Shown: one piece after another, positions 3,822-21,561 of the stretch
Layout: the number at the start of each line of letters is the position of its first letter
Numbering within the stretch: the stretch's first letter is position 1
Source of the DNA: Candidatus Zambryskiibacteriota bacterium
GTDB taxonomy: Bacteria; Patescibacteriota; Minisyncoccia; Phycocordibacterales; WO2-35-19
Direction: 5' to 3'
DNA length: 56,746 nucleotides
Assembly: GCA_048499675.1 (NCBI GenBank)
Contig: JASNZL010000001.1
Location: 1-56,746 of the forward strand
Program-made: the position numbers and the translations under genes
Notes under the pieces: model-generated
The model's input: only the letters and a program-made list of their open reading frames with translations
Databases searched by the model: none
What the model was told of the DNA's origin: nothing

Positions 3822-5726
3822 ATGTATTTAGTAAATTGCCTACCTTTCTCAAAAGCTTTAAACAAAGATTCTCTAACATATTTTTCTGCTGATTTTTTGG
3901 AACCCGGGCAACTTGTAAAAATCAGTATCAGAGGTAAAAATACTTCTGCTCTGATTCTCGATATTAGATCAGTAAGAGAGGCAAAATCAGAAATACGAGG
4001 AGCCGACTACAAAATAAAAAAGATTATATCTATTTCTTCAAAACCTTTTCTAAAAAAAAGTTTTTTGGACGCTGTAATTAAGACCTCAGATTATTATGCA
4101 ACTAGTGCCGGAGCGGTTTTGTCTCAAATAATACCATCAGCAATTTTAGAAAATCCAAACCTTCTATCTAATTTTGTTGTAAAGCAAAATGATAAAACAA
4201 AAACAGAAATGGCTGGAACGAAGCTTGCTCTCCAAGATGAAAAGGATGAGAGAATGAGTTATTACAAATCTTTAATACGAGAAGAGTTCGCCAAGAAAAA
4301 ATCAATTTTTATTTGTGTACCCCAAAATGAAGATGTCAAACAAATCAAAGAAAAGATTGAAAGAGGAATAGAACAATATGTGTGTGCTTTCCACAAAGAT
4401 ATGACCAAGAAAACTTTTAGAGAAGAGTGGAAAAAAATGTCTGTACAAAAGCACCCTTTAGTTATTATTGGTACAGCCAGATGGCTTTTTATACCAAGAG
4501 AAGATTTGAACACTATCATAATAGAGCGCGAAACAAGTAATGGATGGAAAACAATGGTAAGACCTTTTATTGACTTAAGGACTTTTGCAGAAAATTATGC
4601 AGAAGAGAGAAAAATAAGGATTATTTTTGCGGACACTTTTCTTAGAATAGAAACTCTTTATAGACACAAAAACGATGAGATTCAGAAATTCGAGCAAGTG
4701 AAATGGAGACTGGAAATGAAAGATGAAATTACGATTGTAAACCCAACAGAAATAAAACATAAAACAAAAGAATTCAGTGCTATTTCAAAGATAACAGCCA
4801 GTAAAATAAAGACCGCTCTAGAAAACGGATCTAATGTTTTCATATACACAACACGCAAAGGACTTTCTCCAATAACACTCTGTGGTGATTGTGGTCAATA
4901 TGTAGAGTGCGCAAACTGCTCTTCGCCTATGGTTTTATACAAAGGGAAAAATGGTGGAGTCTTTAGATGTCATCAGTGTGGCGAATCAAGGGATGCTTCT
5001 GAAACTTGTAAGAAATGCGGTAGTTGGAAGTTGGTTGACCTTGGCATCGGTATAGAAAAAGTCACAGAAGAAATTACTGAGCTTTTTCCTGACACTCAAA
5101 TTTTTCAATTAAACAAAGATGTAGCGACCACTAATTTAAAAGCAGAAAAAATAGTAGATAATTTTTACAACACAAGAGGATCAATACTTATAGGTGCAGA
5201 TATGGCCTTTTCTTATTTATACAAAAAAGTCGGTATGACTATAATTGCTTCTCTCGATTCCCTATTCTCTATTCCAGATTTTAGAATAAGAGAAAAAATA
5301 TTTAGTATAATGATACAAGCAAGGAATGCATCAAAAAACTCACTTTTAATTCAAACCCGAAATCCAGAAGATGTCTCTATCAGAAGTATCATATCTGGAA
5401 ACTTACTTGAATTTTACAACGCAGAAATACAGGACAGAAAATTATTAGAGTATCCCCCTTTTGGAGTATTTATAAAAATTACCATTAGAGGAAACCATCT
5501 TTCCATAAAAAAAGAGTCTCTATACCTAAAAAAGAATTTAGATAGACTTGAAGGTCTAGATATTTCTATTTTTCCATCCAATCACGAAAAAAAGGGAGAG
5601 CAAAGTGCAATAAATGCCGTTATAAAAATTTCCAAAGAAGATTGGCCGAACGAGGAATTAATTGATTTCCTAAAATCCCTTCCTAGTTATTATGAAATAA
5701 AAGTTGATCCAGACAATCTCTTATAA
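3822..5726 (+). CDS. priA: PriA-like primosomal protein N' lacking recognisable ATPase motifs
   Basis: PriA-type double zinc ribbon (CGDCGQYVECANCSSPMVLY...FRCHQCG...CKKCGS) and overall length and architecture. No GKT/GKS P-loop anywhere in the ORF. Confidence 0.7.
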   Translation: MYLVNCLPFSKALNKDSLTYFSADFLEPGQLVKISIRGKNTSALILDIRSVREAKSEIRGADYKIKKIISISSKPFLKKSFLDAVIKTSDYYATSAGAVLSQIIPSAILENPNLLSNFVVKQNDKTKTEMAGTKLALQDEKDERMSYYKSLIREEFAKKKSIFICVPQNEDVKQIKEKIERGIEQYVCAFHKDMTKKTFREEWKKMSVQKHPLVIIGTARWLFIPREDLNTIIIERETSNGWKTMVRPFIDLRTFAENYAEERKIRIIFADTFLRIETLYRHKNDEIQKFEQVKWRLEMKDEITIVNPTEIKHKTKEFSAISKITASKIKTALENGSNVFIYTTRKGLSPITLCGDCGQYVECANCSSPMVLYKGKNGGVFRCHQCGESRDASETCKKCGSWKLVDLGIGIEKVTEEITELFPDTQIFQLNKDVATTNLKAEKIVDNFYNTRGSILIGADMAFSYLYKKVGMTIIASLDSLFSIPDFRIREKIFSIMIQARNASKNSLLIQTRNPEDVSIRSIISGNLLEFYNAEIQDRKLLEYPPFGVFIKITIRGNHLSIKKESLYLKKNLDRLEGLDISIFPSNHEKKGEQSAINAVIKISKEDWPNEELIDFLKSLPSYYEIKVDPDNLL

Positions 5727-7599: not shown

Positions 7600-9369
7600 T
7601 TATTTGAACATATTAAATAAATTTCGCCACCAACTTTTTGGTTTTAATTCAATATTTTGATGAACACCTCTACCCTTCTCCACATCAAACTCCTTACTTT
7701 CAAAATTATAATAACCGTCAGCCTCTACCAAAATCTTGTACTTTCCTTCTGGAACTAGAAACGAGTAGGAACCACTATTTAAGGTTTTTTGAGGATTGGT
7801 TTGTTGATACAAATTTGATGGCCAAATTTCAAATACACTCTTTTGTGGATTAAGCCACATCAAGGAAACTTTGGCGTCAGGAATTCTGGCCTCTTTATTT
7901 TTAATTTTTTCATAAACATATCCTTCAGGATCAATCACTGTTATGAGCCTCAACTCTTTCTTGCCTAAACTTATTTTTTTGTATTCTATGATCGAAAGTA
8001 TTTCATATTCGCCATAGACCAACGGAGCCTCAATCTTTGCTTTATAAATATTGTCTCCAGCATAAGTATATTCAAATTCACTCACTACCAACTTTTCTTC
8101 AACTTCAATTATTTCATCAGATGAACGATTTATCCCGAGAGAAGCCATCAAAGGACTGGCGAGCATAGAATTTGCCGGCACAGCTTTTGCCTGCTGTCTT
8201 TTAATATTGTTAACCAATAAGTAGCCTTTTATTTCTTTGACAGGCTCATCAACCTTTATTGCAAGCTCAATTGGTTTGCCGACTACAGTGGTGATAGTTT
8301 GCTCAGGTTGTCCATCTGGAGTTAATGATAGATTTATAGTGTAATCGGTAAGTTCGTTAACTTTAGCAAACACCACTTCTGACGGCAGAGCGCTTTTTTG
8401 CTCTTTTGATAATTTTGAAATCGGCACACTTACTCCGCTCGTTAAACCACTTTTGTCTCCAATGTTGGGTAAGTTGAAACTGGCATTTTTAAGTTTACTC
8501 AAATCAGAAATTTTGGTTATACCAACTTCAGAAAAAGTTTTTTGAAGTTCGGGAAATTTATTGACTAATGTTTGTATCTCATCAGGTAATGGCGCAAATA
8601 AAAATCGATTAATTGGATCATTTGAAATAAGATTCCATTTGCCCGCCATTGCCATAATAACACTCTCAGTTTTTGCCACATCTTCAGCGGTCAAAGCTGG
8701 CTCTCGTGAAAAATCAGGTGTGATAGATGTCAAAAACGATTTTAAAGCATTACTTGCTTGTACAGCGTAGTTGGTCACAGTAGTAACAACATTACTCCCC
8801 GTTTGGAGCAAGCCAGCTTGCGATGCGATGGCGCTATTTCGTCGGCCACTTGCCGAACCAGAAGTATTAGTTGGAACAGTAGTCGGAACAGTCCTTGCTG
8901 AAACTGGTCGCCAATCAGTTTTGACAGGATAATCACCATCAAATATTATCCAGCCAACAGTCTCGCTCAACGCGGAACCTATAAATTTACCTGAGGAATT
9001 GATAGAGACTCCTCCATTTTCAGGGTCAAATTTTATATAGCCTATATTTTCACCCCAAGCGTAGCCTGATAAATTGCCTTCGCTGTCATTTACTACTCCA
9101 TCGAGGTTTATCCATCCAACCGTCTCGCTTAAAGCATAACCTGAAAGCGCCGAATCAGTGACAGATACGGCACAATTATCACAAGCAAAATTGAGCCAAC
9201 CAATATTTTCACCCCAAGCGTATTTGTACTCAGTATCAATTGTTCCGTTTGTCTCTGAGGCAAAAACTGTACTGACAGATAAAAAAACTAACAAAAATAC
9301 AGCCAAAACCATTTCGTTTTTCACAATTTTCATTATATAAATTTTAACAAAATAGGCTAAAATTAACAA
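7600..9369 (-). CDS. Secreted repeat protein with a C-terminal carboxypeptidase-regulatory-like beta-sandwich
   Basis: Signal-peptide-like N-terminus; the probable start is the ATG at 9333. About four repeats of SGYA-x-(G/S)E-x-(I/V)GWI-x-(F/L)D. C-terminal YSFLVPEGKYKILVEADGY motif. Confidence 0.6.
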   Translation of the reverse strand: MLILAYFVKIYIMKIVKNEMVLAVFLLVFLSVSTVFASETNGTIDTEYKYAWGENIGWLNFACDNCAVSVTDSALSGYALSETVGWINLDGVVNDSEGNLSGYAWGENIGYIKFDPENGGVSINSSGKFIGSALSETVGWIIFDGDYPVKTDWRPVSARTVPTTVPTNTSGSASGRRNSAIASQAGLLQTGSNVVTTVTNYAVQASNALKSFLTSITPDFSREPALTAEDVAKTESVIMAMAGKWNLISNDPINRFLFAPLPDEIQTLVNKFPELQKTFSEVGITKISDLSKLKNASFNLPNIGDKSGLTSGVSVPISKLSKEQKSALPSEVVFAKVNELTDYTINLSLTPDGQPEQTITTVVGKPIELAIKVDEPVKEIKGYLLVNNIKRQQAKAVPANSMLASPLMASLGINRSSDEIIEVEEKLVVSEFEYTYAGDNIYKAKIEAPLVYGEYEILSIIEYKKISLGKKELRLITVIDPEGYVYEKIKNKEARIPDAKVSLMWLNPQKSVFEIWPSNLYQQTNPQKTLNSGSYSFLVPEGKYKILVEADGYYNFESKEFDVEKGRGVHQNIELKPKSWWRNLFNMFK

Positions 9370-9376
9370 TCAAACT

Positions 9377-10549
9377 GTGCATAAGGTTTTCAATTTCAAA
9401 AATCTGTATAACGCCTATTTAGATTGCAGAAAAAATAAAAGAAATACCATAAATGCAATAAAATTTGAACTATATTGTGAAAAAGAAATTTTTAAACTAA
9501 AAAACGAGTTACTAAACAAAACCTATCATCCAGATAAATCAATATGTTTTGCGGTGACCAAGCCCGTACCGAGAGAGATATTTGCCGCCTCATTTCGAGA
9601 TAGAGTGGTTCATCACCTAATTTATAACCAAATAGAAAAGATGTTTGAAAAGTCATTCGCCGACCAATCTTGCGCTTGCCGAAAAGGGAAAGGCACGCAC
9701 TTCGCATTAAAATATTTCAGGAAATACGCCAAAAAAATCACTGGGAACGGCACCAGAGACGCATATTTTATGCATTTAGACATCAGAAGCTTTTTTATGA
9801 GTATTGATAAAAATATATTAATGAATATAATTGTCAAAAAAATTAGAGACCCAGACTTACTTTGGCTTATTAGAACAATAATATATAACGATCCAACAAA
9901 AAATTACTATTGTAAGAGTCCAAAATATTTAATGTCCTCGGTGCCGAGACATAAATCCCTTTTAGGTGGTAGCAAAGGCAGGGGTCTGCCCATCGGCAAT
10001 CTCACATCGCAGTTTTTTGCCAATGTTTATTTGAATGATTTGGATATGTTTGTGAAGCACAATCTAAAAGCGAAATATTATTTACGATATGTTGATGATT
10101 TCATTTTGTTAAATAGTGACCTTAAAACTCTTAAAAATTGGCAAATAAAAATTGAAAAATTCTTAAAAGAAAGACTAAAGCTTGATTTAAACATTCATAA
10201 AACCAAACTCGGTCAAATTAAAAATGGTGTTGATTTGGTAGGTTATATCATCAAACCCCATTATGTACTGGTACGGAAAAGGGTTGTCAATGCTTGCAAA
10301 GGAAGACTTTATGAATTTAACAAAATATTAGAGAACGAATTGTCGGACGAAAAAACGAGGTTCAAAATCCTTTCTGTCATAAATTCCTATTTTGGCCACT
10401 TTCATCACGCCAACTCCTTCAAATTGCGAAAATATTTATACACCAAACATTTTGGTAAAATTCGAGAAATTATAGAACCAAATGATGAAAAAATAATAAG
10501 TTTTAAATTAAAAAAGGATTCAATCCAAAATCACAAAAAGCCGAAATAA
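9377..10549 (+). CDS. Diversity-generating retroelement reverse transcriptase
   Basis: RT motifs include YVDD (10088-10099) and the DGR-typical IGNLTSQ-FFANVYLN block (9992-10012). It is adjacent to a TR/VR pair and an avd gene. GTG start. Confidence 0.9.
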   Translation: MHKVFNFKNLYNAYLDCRKNKRNTINAIKFELYCEKEIFKLKNELLNKTYHPDKSICFAVTKPVPREIFAASFRDRVVHHLIYNQIEKMFEKSFADQSCACRKGKGTHFALKYFRKYAKKITGNGTRDAYFMHLDIRSFFMSIDKNILMNIIVKKIRDPDLLWLIRTIIYNDPTKNYYCKSPKYLMSSVPRHKSLLGGSKGRGLPIGNLTSQFFANVYLNDLDMFVKHNLKAKYYLRYVDDFILLNSDLKTLKNWQIKIEKFLKERLKLDLNIHKTKLGQIKNGVDLVGYIIKPHYVLVRKRVVNACKGRLYEFNKILENELSDEKTRFKILSVINSYFGHFHHANSFKLRKYLYTKHFGKIREIIEPNDEKIISFKLKKDSIQNHKKPK

Positions 10550-10560
10550 GGCGAGTTTTC

Positions 10561-10705
10561 ATTTCCGGGGCGAACGCAACGAATGAAGTTCAAGCCGGTG
10601 AGCTTATTGTTGGTGTTCGTGTTGCCGTTAGAAAGGTTCGTGTTCCAAGCGTTAGCGGTATTATTGGATTGAGTAGTGGCCGACCAGTAGTTGCGATTGA
10701 CGCCT
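10561..10705 (-). repeat. DGR template repeat (TR)
   Basis: It aligns without gaps to 12319-12463 (127/145 identical). All 18 differences are at plus-strand T, which is A on the minus strand. In the VR frame the TR is rich in AAY (Asn) codons. Confidence 0.9.
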
Positions 10706-10779
10706 CTGCAAAATGTCCCGTCATACCTGATTTTCTCCAAAATTCGATTATTTAAAAAAATACAAATTCACGCCATAAA

Positions 10780-10798
10780 TATCCGTTAAAAACGGATA
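10780..10798 (-). other. 8-bp hairpin between avd and TR
   Basis: The sequence tatccgtt-aaa-aacggata. It lies in the presumed avd-TR transcript. Confidence 0.35.
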
Positions 10799-10916
10799 AA
10801 CGGGACCGCAATAAACAAGCTCGCTCCCTATTTTTCAATCATCCTTAATTGGACAGGTGAAAACAAATTACAAGAAAAGTTCTTGAATATTTGAGGGATT
10901 CCGGCTTTTTGAAATT

Positions 10917-11297
10917 TTATTTTGATTTTAATGAACAATTTAAACTAACCTTGTTGCATTTTGCCCAATCAAGCCAACCATAGAGCTGTTTTGATATTTC
11001 CTCTATCATTTTATTAAAATATTCATATCTTTTCAAACCAAGCACATTTAAATCTCTTGCCAATCTGAAGTGTATGCGAAGTTGCTCCAATCTGAGAGTG
11101 GCTCTTTTTAAAACCAAAGTTTTGTCCTCCTCTGAATTGGCTTCAATCACATAGTTTATAAGACTTGACGCAATTTCCTTCAGGGTTTTGCCCAATCCAT
11201 ATTTGTATTCTCGTGGAAATTTGGCCACTGTTCGGTAAACCTCAAGATTCATCTTGTAAACCGATTGAAAAATCTGCAAATGATTGTATTGAGCCAT
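10917..11297 (-). CDS. avd: DGR accessory variability determinant (Avd), four-helix-bundle family
   Basis: Size is 126 aa and the protein is helical. The FPREYKYGLGKTLKEIASSLINYVIEAN segment is typical of the four-helix-bundle / 23S-IVS protein family. It lies directly upstream of the TR on the same strand. Confidence 0.75.
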   Translation of the reverse strand: MAQYNHLQIFQSVYKMNLEVYRTVAKFPREYKYGLGKTLKEIASSLINYVIEANSEEDKTLVLKRATLRLEQLRIHFRLARDLNVLGLKRYEYFNKMIEEISKQLYGWLDWAKCNKVSLNCSLKSK

Positions 11298-11325
11298 ATC
11301 AGCCTATTTTAACAAATTTAAAAAA

Positions 11326-11532
11326 TTATTTGACACTTTCTATATCTCTCAAGATCATCTTAATTATTTTTGGATGAAGAGCCTTTTGTCCATGATTAGG
11401 AATAGTAACACGAACCCCTTTTTGATGGTAAAAAATAACATGAGAACCTTTTTGTCGTGAAAAAACAAAACCAGCTTTTTTGGCTAGGATTTCTAGCTGT
11501 TTGTAATTTTTTGGAAGTTGCTTAGGAGACAT
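11326..11532 (-). CDS. hicA: HicA-family mRNA interferase toxin
   Basis: The SRQKGSHVIFYH...TIPNHG..ALHPKIIKMILRDI pattern. The start is placed at ATG 11532 and overlaps the end of hicB by 11 nt. Confidence 0.75.
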   Translation of the reverse strand: MSPKQLPKNYKQLEILAKKAGFVFSRQKGSHVIFYHQKGVRVTIPNHGQKALHPKIIKMILRDIESVK

Positions 11533-11785
11533 GACTTGGTGCAGAAAATGAAAAAGTTGTAATCGAGACATCACTTCGATCCGAATAAGGAACCACAAAA
11601 TCACCGCGCTCTAAACGATCATCTATATGCATTTCTATCACCTCCTTAATGCTTTTTATTGCTTCCTCATAGGTTTTGCCCTGTGCATAACACCCCTGCA
11701 GTTCACGACACTCTGCGACATACCCATTTTTATCTCTTTCGATAACTGCCGAAAATATTAAATTTTGATTTTTTATATTTTTCAT
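11522..11785 (-). CDS. hicB: HicB-family antitoxin
   Basis: The FSAVIERDKNGYVAECRELQGCYAQGKTYEEAIKSIKEVIEMHI segment matches the HicB/UPF0150 N-terminal fold. It is directly upstream of hicA. Confidence 0.75.
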   Translation of the reverse strand: MKNIKNQNLIFSAVIERDKNGYVAECRELQGCYAQGKTYEEAIKSIKEVIEMHIDDRLERGDFVVPYSDRSDVSITTFSFSAPSHVS

Positions 11786-11955
11786 ATAAGTATATTATAG
11801 CATACACACTATATTCGTGCCATAATTTCAAAAAGTATATTAACTAGATTCAAGATTGTGTCAGATATTTTTTTATTTCTCGTTCTGCCTCTAAAGATTA
11901 AGCTCCTAAAAATTTGTTACTTAATTTAAAATATAGCGAGTATTTCATAATATTT

Positions 11956-12255
11956 CTAACGGGATTCATAAATTGGTTTCAAATCCCTGTAAATATATTC
12001 CTTAAAATAAGGCACCACTGCTCTATCGGACACAATATCTACCGATTTATTCAATCGTTCTGATATCTCTTCTTTAAAACTTACCATATCAAGTAATGTA
12101 AATATCTGGTCGCCGAAGGAAACCAAAATGTCCACATCACTATCTTGCCTAGCTTCGCCCCTGGCATACGAGCCGAAAATGCCGGCAGATTTTATACCAT
12201 ATTTTTCAAAAATCGGTCTCGTGTTTATCGCTATATTTTCTAATGTCTCAGTCAT
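11956..12255 (-). CDS. Minimal nucleotidyltransferase (MNT-type antitoxin-like) with no HEPN partner
   Basis: The GIFGSYARGEARQDSDVDILV catalytic motif. The start is chosen at ATG 12255; alternatives are 12279 and TTG 12303. No ORF of 60 aa or more in the 170 bp downstream. Confidence 0.7.
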   Translation of the reverse strand: MTETLENIAINTRPIFEKYGIKSAGIFGSYARGEARQDSDVDILVSFGDQIFTLLDMVSFKEEISERLNKSVDIVSDRAVVPYFKEYIYRDLKPIYESR

Positions 12256-12315
12256 AAAAACATTATAACATATTTTCATTAAAATTTTAGGAAAATAATT
12301 CAAATGAAAAAATAA

Positions 12316-13497
12316 TCAAATGCCGGGGCGAACGCAACGAATGAAGGACAAGCCGGTGAGCTTAGAGTAGGGGTTCGTGAGGCCGAAAGAAAGGTTCGTG
12401 TACCAAGCGAGAGCGGTATTATAGGATAGAGTAGTGGCCGACCAGTAGTAGCGATTGACGCCTGAGGCCTCCAAATTGCCATACGAGCCATTAATATATG
12501 CTTGCATAAGTTGTTTTTGATGCGGTAGATACCAGCCAGATTTTTGATGGTCTCCATTTGAACAAAGTATTGAGGCGTCAACAATCCCTGCATTTACTAC
12601 AGAATAACTTCTGTCATATGTAGCAGAAGAGGATGCGGTCCAAGTATAAGTTGACGGCGACACATTTGAAAATTCACTACATCCAGCATTTTTGCAGGGG
12701 TGACTCCATATCAGATTTACTGCATCATCTTTGATGTATGCACCGTCGTCACCAGTACCACAATAATTATTGGCGACATCACAAATAGTCCAACTTGTTG
12801 CGTATCTATCCACAGGCGGAGCCTTAGCATTATTATAATCATCATTTCCACCATTTGCTTGACTGCCTCCATCAAATCCACCATCAGTGCGTGTGCCGTT
12901 CCAAAGATTTTTAAGTGATGTGCCAACGACCCCAAAAACATTTTTATCCGCCAAAATATTTGAGGCGATGAGATCAGTGTCGCCCTCAACATAGCCTGTA
13001 CCGTCGTGATAACCCTGCGAAATAGTTTGATTGTTGGTGTTTGGAGTAAAAAGCTGTTGGCCGATATTTGGCATCGTGCCAGTTTGGAATGACCAATCAG
13101 TCTGGGAATCACCGAAGTAGGTCCGTCCGCTCAAAACTTCAGAGGTGGTCGCTGTGCCACCCGAGGGCAAAAGTGTTCCCGCCACTCCGAGGTAGGTGGT
13201 GCCAGTTTTTACTTTGTCAGCCGAAATCAGACTTGCCAAAGCATTATAAATTTCACTTAGAGTTTTGCCACTACTCGCTAGACTGTCAGAAAAAGTGAAA
13301 CTGTGTCCACCTTCGGTCGCAGGAGTGTTGCTGGTAATAAAGTTGTAAATTTCAGAAAGAGTGTAAAACTGAGCTGAGGGAGTTCCAGAGGGCGGTGTGA
13401 TTGAGCCAGCATAAACCACGATGCCCGTACCCAAAAGTACGGATACAAGGACTGGCAGAAGCCACTTTACAAATTTCATATTTAAAAAATTTTTCAT
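12316..13497 (-). CDS. DGR target protein: secreted or anchored, with a C-terminal DUF1566 / C-type-lectin-fold variable domain
   Basis: N-terminal signal/TM segment. The C-terminus YYWSATT...AWY.N...G......K....FIRCVRPG matches the DUF1566-type ligand-binding fold. The VR occupies the last ~48 codons. Confidence 0.85.
   Translation of the reverse strand: MKNFLNMKFVKWLLPVLVSVLLGTGIVVYAGSITPPSGTPSAQFYTLSEIYNFITSNTPATEGGHSFTFSDSLASSGKTLSEIYNALASLISADKVKTGTTYLGVAGTLLPSGGTATTSEVLSGRTYFGDSQTDWSFQTGTMPNIGQQLFTPNTNNQTISQGYHDGTGYVEGDTDLIASNILADKNVFGVVGTSLKNLWNGTRTDGGFDGGSQANGGNDDYNNAKAPPVDRYATSWTICDVANNYCGTGDDGAYIKDDAVNLIWSHPCKNAGCSEFSNVSPSTYTWTASSSATYDRSYSVVNAGIVDASILCSNGDHQKSGWYLPHQKQLMQAYINGSYGNLEASGVNRYYWSATTLSYNTALAWYTNLSFGLTNPYSKLTGLSFIRCVRPGI
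12319..12463 (-). repeat. DGR variable repeat (VR), ending one codon before the stop
   Basis: This is the counterpart of TR 10561-10705. All 18 substitutions correspond to TR adenines and alter about 13 codons. The GC-rich invariant 3' end (12323-12346) is IMH-like. Confidence 0.9.
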
Positions 13498-19865: not shown

Positions 19866-19938
19866 TCCTCGGTAGCTCAGTTGGTAGAGCGGCGAGCTGT
19901 TAACTCGTTGGTCGTAGGTTCGAGCCCTACCCGAGGAG
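19866..19938 (+). tRNA. tRNA-Asn (GTT)
   Basis: Manual cloverleaf: acceptor tcctcgg/ccgagga, D-arm gctc-agttggta-gagc, anticodon loop ctGTTaa, T-arm gtagg-ttcgagc-cctac. CCA is not encoded. Confidence 0.9.
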
Positions 19939-19939
19939 C
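19925..19939 (+). repeat. attL core (tRNA-Asn 3' end)
   Basis: Identical 15-mer at 31941-31955. Confidence 0.8.
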
Positions 19940-21561
19940 CCTAGTGACGAAACCTCACATTTTGTGGGGTTTTGTCTTATATGGCTTGATATTTTACAGG
20001 TTCGAGCGCGCTCTAATTCTTGCTCGACCGCCTGACGACTTTTTATGATTGTTTTAATGAAAGAATGGTAATTTACAAAGACTTTTTTGCCCTTTAGGGT
20101 GAGGTTCGAGCCAAGGCATGCGAGTATTGCTCGTTTGGCTTTATCATCTCCTTTTTCAAACCAAATGTGGGCGTAGCAAGCAAAGTCAAAGGTCTGCTCA
20201 GTGAGGTCTACCCATTCCAAAACTTCTCTGTTTTTGGTTTTCAATTCTTCTTCGAGTAATAACTTCTTTTTGACCATGGCAACCTTGAGTGTTTGGTATT
20301 CTTCATCGGTGATTATGACTCTCTCGCTGTTTGCCGGTGAGGTGAAGTTGAGTGTCAGTGATTGTAAATTCTTGGTAACTTCTTCAAGCTCTTTATGTTT
20401 ACCTTTGAGGACCAAGGTGTCGCTATCGACTTCAGTCTTTCTAAGTTCATGAAGGTGTTTTATTGCCCAGTCTTTGAATCTTTCTGAAATGGTAATCTCG
20501 CTGAGCTTGCCTTTGATATCAAGAATGAGGTCTTTAAGCTCTATGACTTTCTCAGGACACTTCACATCTACCTTTTTCTTGGTGCAGTTGTAGTAGACAT
20601 AGTGGTGAACATTGCCATTCTTACATCGCTTTACTTTTGCCTGGGCGGTGATGCTACAGCCACACGTTCCACATTTCATAAGGGAGGTGAAGGCAAAGCT
20701 ACGCTCGGGGCGTGGGCGTGGTTGCATAGTTCTGCCCATTATCTGTTGAACCTTGTTGAATTCTTCTTCGGTGATCATAGCCTCATGTGCGCCTTTGTGC
20801 CAATTGCCACTTTTGTATGGATATTCAAACCAACCGTAATAAAAAGGGTTGCTTAGAAGTGCATAGATACCGCTTTTTGATAAATGCTTGCCACCCATAT
20901 TTCTTCGCTGATATGTTTTCAAATTCAACTCCTTACGAGCCACGTCCCATATTTGTATCGTGCTGTAGTTACCAGTGAGCATGAGGTCGAATAATCTCTT
21001 TACTACTGGAAAGCGTTCAGGGTCCTTCATGATTGTCTTGAATCCCTTTTCTCTATCTGGCGTACTCATGTACCCGACCGGACACATGCTTGGTAGCCAG
21101 CCTTCTCGGACCTTCTTTGCTAAGCCTCGCTTTACGTTCACCGACAAGTCTCTGATGTACTGGTTCGCCATTCCAAGCTCTACCTGCATCATGAGGACGT
21201 TGTCTGTCGGATAGTAGGTTCGTCCGAAAGTCACGATCTGTGCGATTGCACTTTGCTGTAGCATCCAACTTATCTGTCCGCCGTCTACTGGGTTACGAGC
21301 AAGGCGGTCTAGTTTCCAGCAGATTATTCCATTAGCCTCACCTTTATAAATTCTCTCAAGCATTTTGTTGAAGACTGGTCTTCCTGGCTTTTTAGCTGAT
21401 TGTGATTCGGTAAGGACCTCGATTATCGCCAAACCTTGCTCTTCGGCAATCTTTAAGAGTTCATCTTTCTGGGCATCTATGGATGCCGCTTGTCTGTCTT
21501 CCGCCTCGCTTGATTTACGAGCGTAGAGGAAGTATTTGATTGTGGGTTTTGTATTATTCAT
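19927..21561 (-). CDS. Large serine recombinase (integrase)
   Basis: The N-terminal resolvase catalytic region YARKSS...DRLARN, a recombinase domain, a Cys-rich zinc ribbon (CGTCGC...YYNC) and a coiled-coil tail. The start is set at ATG 21561, an 8-nt overlap with the upstream gene. Confidence 0.85.
   Translation of the reverse strand: MNNTKPTIKYFLYARKSSEAEDRQAASIDAQKDELLKIAEEQGLAIIEVLTESQSAKKPGRPVFNKMLERIYKGEANGIICWKLDRLARNPVDGGQISWMLQQSAIAQIVTFGRTYYPTDNVLMMQVELGMANQYIRDLSVNVKRGLAKKVREGWLPSMCPVGYMSTPDREKGFKTIMKDPERFPVVKRLFDLMLTGNYSTIQIWDVARKELNLKTYQRRNMGGKHLSKSGIYALLSNPFYYGWFEYPYKSGNWHKGAHEAMITEEEFNKVQQIMGRTMQPRPRPERSFAFTSLMKCGTCGCSITAQAKVKRCKNGNVHHYVYYNCTKKKVDVKCPEKVIELKDLILDIKGKLSEITISERFKDWAIKHLHELRKTEVDSDTLVLKGKHKELEEVTKNLQSLTLNFTSPANSERVIITDEEYQTLKVAMVKKKLLLEEELKTKNREVLEWVDLTEQTFDFACYAHIWFEKGDDKAKRAILACLGSNLTLKGKKVFVNYHSFIKTIIKSRQAVEQELERARTCKISSHIRQNPTKCEVSSLGLLG

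Follow-up and report, generated by a model that had tools for sequence, protein, structure and literature searches.

A diversity-generating retroelement with an opposite-strand reverse transcriptase gene in a Patescibacteria chromosome

Contig JASNZL010000001.1 of Candidatus Zambryskiibacteriota bacterium (assembly GCA_048499675.1) carries a locus that we read, with a probability of roughly 85%, as a functional chromosomal diversity-generating retroelement (DGR) of a Patescibacteria (Paceibacteria, Zambryskibacteria-like) bacterium. The window, by which we mean the whole stretch of 56,746 nucleotides (nt) that was analysed (forward strand, positions 1-56,746), contains all of the defining parts of such an element in intact form: a reverse transcriptase (RT) of the DGR type, the accessory variability determinant Avd, a template repeat (TR) together with a variable repeat (VR) that differ at adenines only, and a VR placed at the 3' end of a target gene with a C-type-lectin fold (Table 1). 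A preliminary description of this DNA had already called a complete cassette, and RT, Avd, the TR/VR pair and the target were all found again, present and intact. That description was silent on three features of the locus, namely the location of the RT gene on the opposite strand, the presence of three unrelated genes between avd and the target (hicA, hicB and an MntA-like gene), and the RNA structure that flanks the TR. The type of DGR is already known and the layout, with the RT on the opposite strand, is uncommon yet documented; a structured RNA domain upstream of the TR is the sole element that is possibly new.

Realignment of TR and VR agreed with the 145 ungapped nt and 18 adenine-only mismatches that had been reported at first: all of the mismatches (18/18) fall at adenines of the minus-strand TR, read as T on the plus strand, and no mismatch at another base was found. 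On the minus strand, 12 of the changes from TR to VR are A to T and 6 are A to C. Given 43 adenines in the 145 nt of the TR, the probability that 18 of 18 mismatches would fall on A by chance is 1.5e-11, and for a 141-nt core with 16 mismatches the corresponding value is 1.3e-10. Because the bases next to the repeat on both sides are non-A mismatches, the repeat ends there. No further copy of the repeat was found within the 56.7-kb window, and a metagenome scan for additional TR/VR copies with the invariant 20-mer ATTCGTTGCGTTCGCCCCGG returned three unrelated chance matches and no DGR. The VR comprises codons 345-393 of the 393-codon target, of which 13 (in the range 350-393) are recoded, in keeping with the earlier estimate of about 13 codons and of a TR rich in AAY at these positions; 11 of the 13 are AAY (10) or CAA (1) in the TR.

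Both repeats terminate in the invariant GC-rich GCGTTCGCCCCGG, which is followed by CATTTGA in the VR and by AAATGAA in the TR, and this difference is kept in L030, the corresponding locus of a second Paceibacteria lineage. The GC-rich repeat end and the continuation that distinguishes VR from TR would, judged from the sequence, represent the initiation of mutagenic homing (IMH) element and its TR counterpart, IMH*. At the 3' edge, the mismatches at 10562 and 10564 (TR GGAAAT, VR GGCATT) recur unchanged in the TR/VR pair of the 91%-related lineage, which makes it more likely that they represent fixed IMH/IMH* differences than that mutagenesis produced them. When they are set apart, 16 mutagenic differences remain within the 141-nt core. 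The TR also sits in an open frame of 69 amino acids (aa) (10531-10740, minus strand, TTG start), which is a by-product of the copied target reading frame and not evidence of a gene.

The RT matches Pfam RVT_1 (2e-18), and its closest solved relative is the RT of a Bordetella phage, bRT (PDB 8ub7, 6e-36), versus approximately 1e-13 for the RTs of group II introns and retrons; its assignment to the DGR class was made from motifs and best PDB matches. The IGNLTSQ and YVDD motifs by which it had been recognised both align with motifs of bRT, LPIGNLTSQFFANVY (IGNLTSQ) with IPIGSLTSQLFANVY (IGSLTSQ) and RYVDDFILL (RYVDD) with RYMDD. The GTG start and the N-terminus of the RT are kept in L030-L032, and the ratio of nonsynonymous to synonymous divergence (dN/dS) of the RT versus L030 is 0.09; the assembly index, queried for the exact RT sequence of the window, had no record of it. 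The gene that had been termed Avd-like scores 58.6 bits with Pfam bAvd, above the cut-off of 40, and its dN/dS versus L030 is likewise 0.09, while a sequence search of the PDB with Avd gave no match. Avd occurs in most, though not all, DGRs.

The C-terminus of the target had been described as DUF1566/C-type-lectin-like, and structure prediction and structural comparison point the same way. In an AlphaFold2 model built from 71 sequences, the predicted local distance difference test (pLDDT) score mostly exceeds 90 for residues 220-393, except that blocks near residues 281-310 score 88, 76 and 87. The top PDB match of this model in Foldseek is the C-terminal domain of Legionella Lcl (8q4e; E 1.2e-3, probability 1.00), followed by many C-type-lectin-like domains, including those of snaclecs, langerin, InvE and Bd2740, with template-modelling (TM) scores to the target of 0.5-0.7. 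The VR-bearing domain is predicted by the model to adopt a C-type-lectin-like fold, the last three beta-strands of which, with their loops, are encoded by the VR. Nearly all homologues of the target are Patescibacteria 'DUF1566' proteins with a precomputed PF07603 match. Among 70 homologues, the variable positions correspond to high-entropy columns rich in N, Y, S and T, and the residues that lie between them are nearly invariant (W352, A364, W365, L369, G372, K379, R387, C388 and V389), a pattern that gives indirect support to a putative clustering of the variable residues on a single exposed face. Outside of the VR, the dN/dS of the target versus L030 is 0.08. DGRs with DUF1566/C-type-lectin targets are common in Patescibacteria, and the 393-aa lectin-like protein is probably a hypervariable surface ligand-binder of an episymbiotic-type bacterium.

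Comparison of the window with L030, in which the VR lies at 12420-12564, bears on the activity of the element. TR-to-VR transfer took place after the two lineages split: their TRs differ at 8 sites, and at each of these the VR matches the TR of its own lineage (8/8). As a convergent RT is present in both lineages, the most parsimonious view is that this transfer took place with the RT gene so arranged. Of 94 non-A sites common to the two, the window VR has a mismatch at none and the L030 VR at two, and the A-sites that are changed in one VR only number ten in the window and two in L030. The two target proteins differ at 14 of 49 residues encoded by the VR, and at 27 of 344 elsewhere; when proteins are clustered at 90%, the target's cluster contains just two members. 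The mirrored TR changes, the purifying selection (dN/dS 0.08-0.09) and the location of the variable positions on high-entropy columns lend indirect support to DGR activity.

The avd gene, the TR, the VR and the target gene lie on the minus strand, and the RT gene, on the plus strand, converges on them, with 11 nt from the RT stop codon to the 3' end of the TR. The same convergent layout is present in three independent assemblies of the closest relative (RT 91% identical, P0001), which come from ENA and Logan and from different runs. A simple adenine-mismatch detector was applied to 107 GTDB loci encoding relatives of the RT, and a TR/VR pair was detected in 78 of them. In 64 of these 78 loci the TR is located upstream on the RT strand, often abutting the RT start codon, and in another 4 it is downstream on that strand. 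The remaining 10 of 78 related loci (~13%) have the opposite-strand layout with intact TR/VR pairs, the TR being downstream of the RT in 9 and upstream in 1. In a rough neighbour-joining tree without bootstrap, most opposite-strand loci group together, and the window and locus L191 fall elsewhere, which suggests that the layout arose more than once (at least two separate places in this rough tree). 'Inverted' DGRs have been described (Schillinger et al., 2012) and arrangements with TR and RT on different strands have been noted (Wu et al., 2018); an opposite-strand RT is a documented variant of DGRs, and not a criterion for exclusion. Just upstream of the RT and avd starts, at 9340-9363 (plus strand) and 11296-11319 (minus strand), lies an inverted-repeat motif, AAAATAGGCTRA (24 nt, 75% complementary), which may be a common promoter or leader of the two convergent units; its RT-side copy is fully kept in L030-L032.

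The sequences that flank the TR are well conserved between the two lineages. The non-coding spacer between avd and TR diverges from L030 by 3.8% and the 41 nt that follow the TR by 2.4% (1 substitution); the adjacent coding sequences diverge by 14-16%, and the synonymous divergence (dS) of the neighbouring genes is 0.24-0.39. Two strands on either side of the spacer and TR are complementary over 28 nt (79%), with a 14-bp core, AAAAAGCCGGAAT/ATTTCGGCTTTTT. This helix, P1, is present in both the minimum free energy and the centroid folds, and none of 100 shuffles reached its score. The search for helices was ungapped and used shuffles, as RNAduplex-type folding of long flanks gave meaningless giant interactions. 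Helices with the geometry of P1 and unrelated sequence were found in 6 of 10 opposite-strand relatives and in approximately 10 of the 22 same-strand relatives whose TR is followed by a gap, with the 5' strand 150-250 nt upstream of the TR and the 3' strand at most 40 nt after it, and they are rare where the RT open reading frame (ORF) abuts the TR. The RT of L030 ends about 10 codons earlier (TAG), and the C-terminal tail found in the window only (KDSIQNHKKPK, 10513-10549) is antisense to the 3' strand of P1; because the L030 RT stops earlier, the window tail is best seen as read-through of the P1 3' strand, a strand whose conservation is that of an RNA and not of a coding sequence. Synthesis of cDNA by the phage DGR needs a duplex of the end of avd with the downstream RNA, Sp, beside a TR:Sp primer duplex, and duplexes of upstream with downstream sequence around the TR have been predicted in 207 of 278 DGRs (Handa et al.). 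By analogy, the 3' strand of P1 is a candidate equivalent of the Sp strand in the phage 'cPRT Stop' duplex.

A second helix, P2, is predicted within the spacer. The motif GCCRGAAY occurs 100-240 nt upstream of the TR in 31 of the 78 loci, against 0.03 expected; its partner according to RNAalifold is another motif, GAGCGNGC, on the far side of a variable hairpin. In the window, GCCGGAAT (10898-10905) pairs with GAGCGAGC. P2 covaries among the relatives: its nine pairs are formed in 95.6% of cells versus 76% in shuffles (0/500 as high), pairing drops to 35-46% when the partner is slid, and 31 cells carry a double change versus 10 expected. A covariance model, R1, which was built from 15 related loci, detects the domain in approximately 40 of 100 sources, many of them outside of the training set and always on the TR-sense strand; the domain was located in this way at, for example, 5697-5790 of L003, 5426-5517 of L021, 3202-3289 of L136 and 4962-5061 (minus strand) of L120. 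In the window R1 matches 10776-10908 (minus strand; 21.3 bits, E 1.3e-4) with all nine P2 pairs formed. Searches with Rfam 15 of the window (gathering thresholds and E <= 10) and of 16 relatives (gathering thresholds) gave no family for the TR flanks. An nhmmer search started from the window spacer recovered nothing beyond the near-identical L030 and L032; the spacers of the clade are linked by motifs together with structure, not by sequence alone, and an alignment of whole spacers by MAFFT was too messy for use. No earlier description of this upstream domain, which contains P2 with internal loops that are conserved and a cap that varies, appears to exist.

In the window, GCCGGAAT has two possible partners, GAGCGAGC, as in the family fold, or ATTTCGGC, which follows the TR. 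A hairpin between the TR end and a primer-like sequence (CCGGAA with TTTCGG), beside P1, was considered and set aside as speculation, given that ATTTCGGC may pair with GCCGGAAT instead and that the relatives lend it no clear support. An intrinsic terminator after the TR (GGATTGAATCC followed by a T-run) was likewise discarded; it is not kept in L030, which has TATATT, and was not called by a terminator scan.

The RT relatives span Patescibacteria, Desulfobacterota, Nitrospirota, Omnitrophota and others, and the findings in these loci allow a tentative generalisation to which we would give slightly less than even odds. In the template RNA of this clade, the upstream domain would replace the downstream Sp, P1 would close the domain together with the TR, all cis elements would reside on the avd-TR transcript, and the RT gene would be movable and invertible. 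With every cis-acting RNA element on the avd-TR transcript, the RT gene would be free to occupy either strand, which, if the generalisation is true, would explain why convergent RT layouts recur in the clade. Any novelty of the upstream domain would lie with the family as a whole, not with this window in particular.

For the window itself the following course of events is proposed. The minus strand would give an avd-TR transcript, the non-coding part of which (approximately 10925 to 10520) would fold into a structured 5' domain plus the TR, closed by the long-range helix P1, with its 5' strand across the avd stop codon and its 3' strand just after the TR. The RT, the product of a plus-strand transcription unit of its own that converges on the first, would work in trans with Avd, and RT-Avd would reverse-transcribe the TR with misincorporation opposite adenines. 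The resulting cDNA would take the place of the VR, in the 3' part of the target gene, and recode up to ~15 AAY-type codons, which would lie in the ligand-binding face of the C-type-lectin-like domain in a membrane-anchored or secreted protein. What the sequences show is the set of intact parts, the adenine-only divergence, the flow of information from TR to VR after the lineages parted, the selection on the proteins and on the RNA, and the covariation of the RNA helices; we infer the transcription units, the biological ligand and the identity of the RNA element by which cDNA synthesis is primed or stopped.

Several observations weigh against a functional DGR of this kind. Two of the protein families are matched slightly below threshold, as Avd scores 74.8 bits with NCBIfam DivGenRetAVD (cut-off 80) and the target scores 32.0 bits with Pfam Lcl_C (DUF1566; gathering cut-off 34.9). 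Downstream of the VR there is no GC-rich hairpin, only a weak AT-rich one with a nonsignificant z-score that is not kept in L030, though a GC-rich inverted repeat after the VR is found in only 34% of DGRs and is not universal (Wu et al., 2018). Convergent transcription could in principle yield antisense TR RNA, the roles proposed for P1 and P2 are drawn by analogy with the phage structure, and the match of the window to R1 is weak (21 bits). Moreover, the VR is known from two lineages only, and it is from sequence that we infer present-day activity. Finally, seven A-sites share the same substitution in both VRs (codons 363 CTC, 366 TAC and 384 TCC, and the two 3'-edge positions), which is unexpected if the VR were fully re-randomised in each lineage; selection, patchy incorporation of cDNA or fixed IMH differences are possible causes.

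The A-site substitutions common to both lineages, together with the 64 of 78 related loci in which TR and RT share a strand and the TR immediately precedes the RT, would also fit a fossil DGR, in which a rearrangement inverted the RT gene and uncoupled it from the TR, so that homing no longer occurs and the TR/VR differences are historical. We regard this as unlikely, because the 8/8 lineage-specific TR changes are mirrored in the VRs of two lineages that both have the inverted RT, because the dN/dS of RT and Avd is ~0.09 and the RNA flanks are conserved, and because ~13% of the clade likewise has a convergent RT, with intact TR/VR pairs, and published surveys accept opposite-strand DGRs. A different function might be sought in the imperfect inverted repeats that bracket exactly the spacer and the TR, as the 28-nt repeat could be a DNA recombination site, rather than an RNA helix, at which the 350-nt TR cassette is flipped as an on/off switch; flipping would place the TR in sense behind the RT, and the order RT-TR does occur in L024, L116 and L119. 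The cassette has a single orientation in all four assemblies, however, and no recombinase gene lies nearby; equivalent helices of unrelated sequence exist in same-strand loci, where flipping would be pointless, and the phage precedent is an RNA duplex, all of which renders a switch very improbable. The unusual strand arrangement, taken alone, could even be attributed to an ordinary duplicated gene fragment, with the adenine bias or the opposite-strand RT arising by chance or as a misassembly artefact. We give this almost no credence: it is refuted by the probability of the adenine restriction and by the recurrence of the layout in ENA and Logan assemblies of different runs, and RT and Avd are adjacent. 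A functional DGR is the reading that we prefer.

Table 1. Features of the DGR locus, in positions of the window.
Feature	Position	Strand	Remarks
RT gene	9377..10549	+	390 aa, GTG start; convergent on TR, opposite strand to rest of cassette
P1 3' strand	10520..10547	-	just downstream of TR on template RNA
Template repeat (TR)	10561..10705; core 10565-10705	-	AAY codons at variable positions
Non-coding spacer avd-TR	10706..10916	-	211 nt; structured 5' domain of template RNA (predicted), contains P2
P1 5' strand	10898..10925	-	spans avd stop codon
avd (accessory variability determinant)	10917..11297	-	126 aa; Pfam bAvd
hicA	11326-11532	-	Pfam HicA_toxin 1.7e-16
hicB	11522-11785	-	HicB_lk_antitox/UPF0150
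467-nt insertion	11814..12280	-	carries MntA-like nucleotidyltransferase gene 11956-12255/12303
Target gene	12316..13497	-	393 aa; N-terminal hydrophobic helix, C-terminal DUF1566/C-type-lectin-like domain bearing VR
Variable repeat (VR)	12319..12463; core 12323-12463	-	last 49 codons of target

The genes nested between avd and the target are unrelated to the DGR. The hicA/hicB pair is also present in L030 and has a dN/dS of 0.08, indicative of purifying selection; these are passenger genes, not DGR components. The 467-nt insertion, 38 nt downstream of the VR, is missing from L030. Its MntA-like gene scores 55.4 bits with NCBIfam MntA_antitoxin (type VII antitoxin family; cut-off 60) and matches Pfam Polbeta/NTP_transf_2, and the ORF list contains no HEPN/HepT partner adjoining it. 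Nested ORFs are a known trait of DGR cassettes (Wu et al., 2018).

The window is chromosomal Patescibacteria DNA, with housekeeping neighbours and an MreB that is 85-88% identical to those of Zambryskibacteria/Paceibacteria metagenome-assembled genomes. Within it, an island at ~6.7-14.0 kb (7300-14100 of L030, ~7.3 kb) is 85-95% identical to L030, with a dS of 0.12-0.54, and contains the whole DGR together with a 120-aa ORF, the gene for a secreted protein of 589 aa and a ribosome hibernation factor gene. The flanking housekeeping genes, in contrast, have 65-80% identity and a dS of 1.6-2.6 versus L030, and the low dS of the island beside the high dS of its flanks is a sign that the DGR island was recently exchanged horizontally, or recombined, between two lineages of Paceibacteria. 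The gene for the 589-aa protein (7600-9369, minus strand) is back-to-back with the RT gene; the protein has an N-terminal signal/transmembrane segment, a C-terminal CarboxypepD_reg-like domain and the repeats YAWGENIGW(L/I)NF and ALSETVGWI(N/I)(L/F), with a direct repeat in the DNA at 9000-9063 and 9159-9222. It is not a target of the DGR. Outside of the island, a tRNA gene at 19866-19938 (plus strand) is uninterrupted in the window, and its L030 orthologue (19939-20288) is split by a group I intron of ~270 nt (Rfam RF00028, 77 bits, L030 19967-20242).

DGRs of the Candidate Phyla Radiation (CPR)/Patescibacteria were reportedly the subject of work by Paul and colleagues in 2017. The window DGR adds one well-supported example to Patescibacteria, where DGRs are already known to be frequent. 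It shares the host group, the target family and the presence of nested ORFs with CPR DGRs that have DUF1566-type targets, CPR DGRs and nested ORFs having both been noted previously (Wu et al., 2018), and shows no essential difference from them; the ORFs nested in it are HicAB and a lone MntA-like gene. Structurally, the VR-bearing domain is matched best by the C-terminal domain of Lcl from Legionella pneumophila (8q4e), with a low identity of 26% over 90 columns; the Pfam family is Lcl_C, formerly DUF1566. Lcl is not known to be a DGR target.

With respect to layout, the nearest precedent is provided by the Group 4 'inverted' DGRs of Shewanella baltica OS155, Vibrio sp. RC586 and Photobacterium angustum S14, which come from Gammaproteobacteria and were regarded as one rare event (Schillinger et al., 2012). 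In this comparison of layouts, the window differs from them in its Patescibacteria host and in that its layout occurs in 10 of 78 loci of the RT clade. The TR-to-VR copying after the lineage split and the purifying selection provide evidence from nature that an RT gene on the opposite strand, with the RT provided in trans, is compatible with a working DGR.

Among the closest known systems is the prototype, the DGR of Bordetella phage BPP-1 (mtd-avd-TR-Sp-brt). Both elements have an RT with IGxxxSQ and YxDD motifs, an Avd, and a TR/VR pair of ~140 nt that differs at TR adenines only, and in both the VR lies at the 3' end of the gene for a protein with a C-type-lectin fold, which in BPP-1 is the receptor-binding protein. 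The parts of BPP-1 all share a strand, its avd directly adjoins the TR (0 nt), and the 144-nt Sp RNA lies between TR and brt, whereas in the window the RT is on the other strand, a 211-nt domain, predicted to be structured, separates avd from the TR, and only ~40 conserved nt follow the TR. The Sp of BPP-1 scores 104.7 bits for Rfam RF03022 (Phage_DGR), for which the window has no match even at E <= 10, and R1, conversely, finds nothing in BPP-1. The window DGR is furthermore chromosomal rather than phage-borne, has nested toxin-antitoxin genes and lacks the GC hairpin after the VR. If confirmed, the upstream RNA domain would improve DGR detectors, which seek the TR on the RT strand, and would give structural and biochemical studies of DGR reverse transcription a further template RNA, of different organisation, to set beside that of BPP-1.

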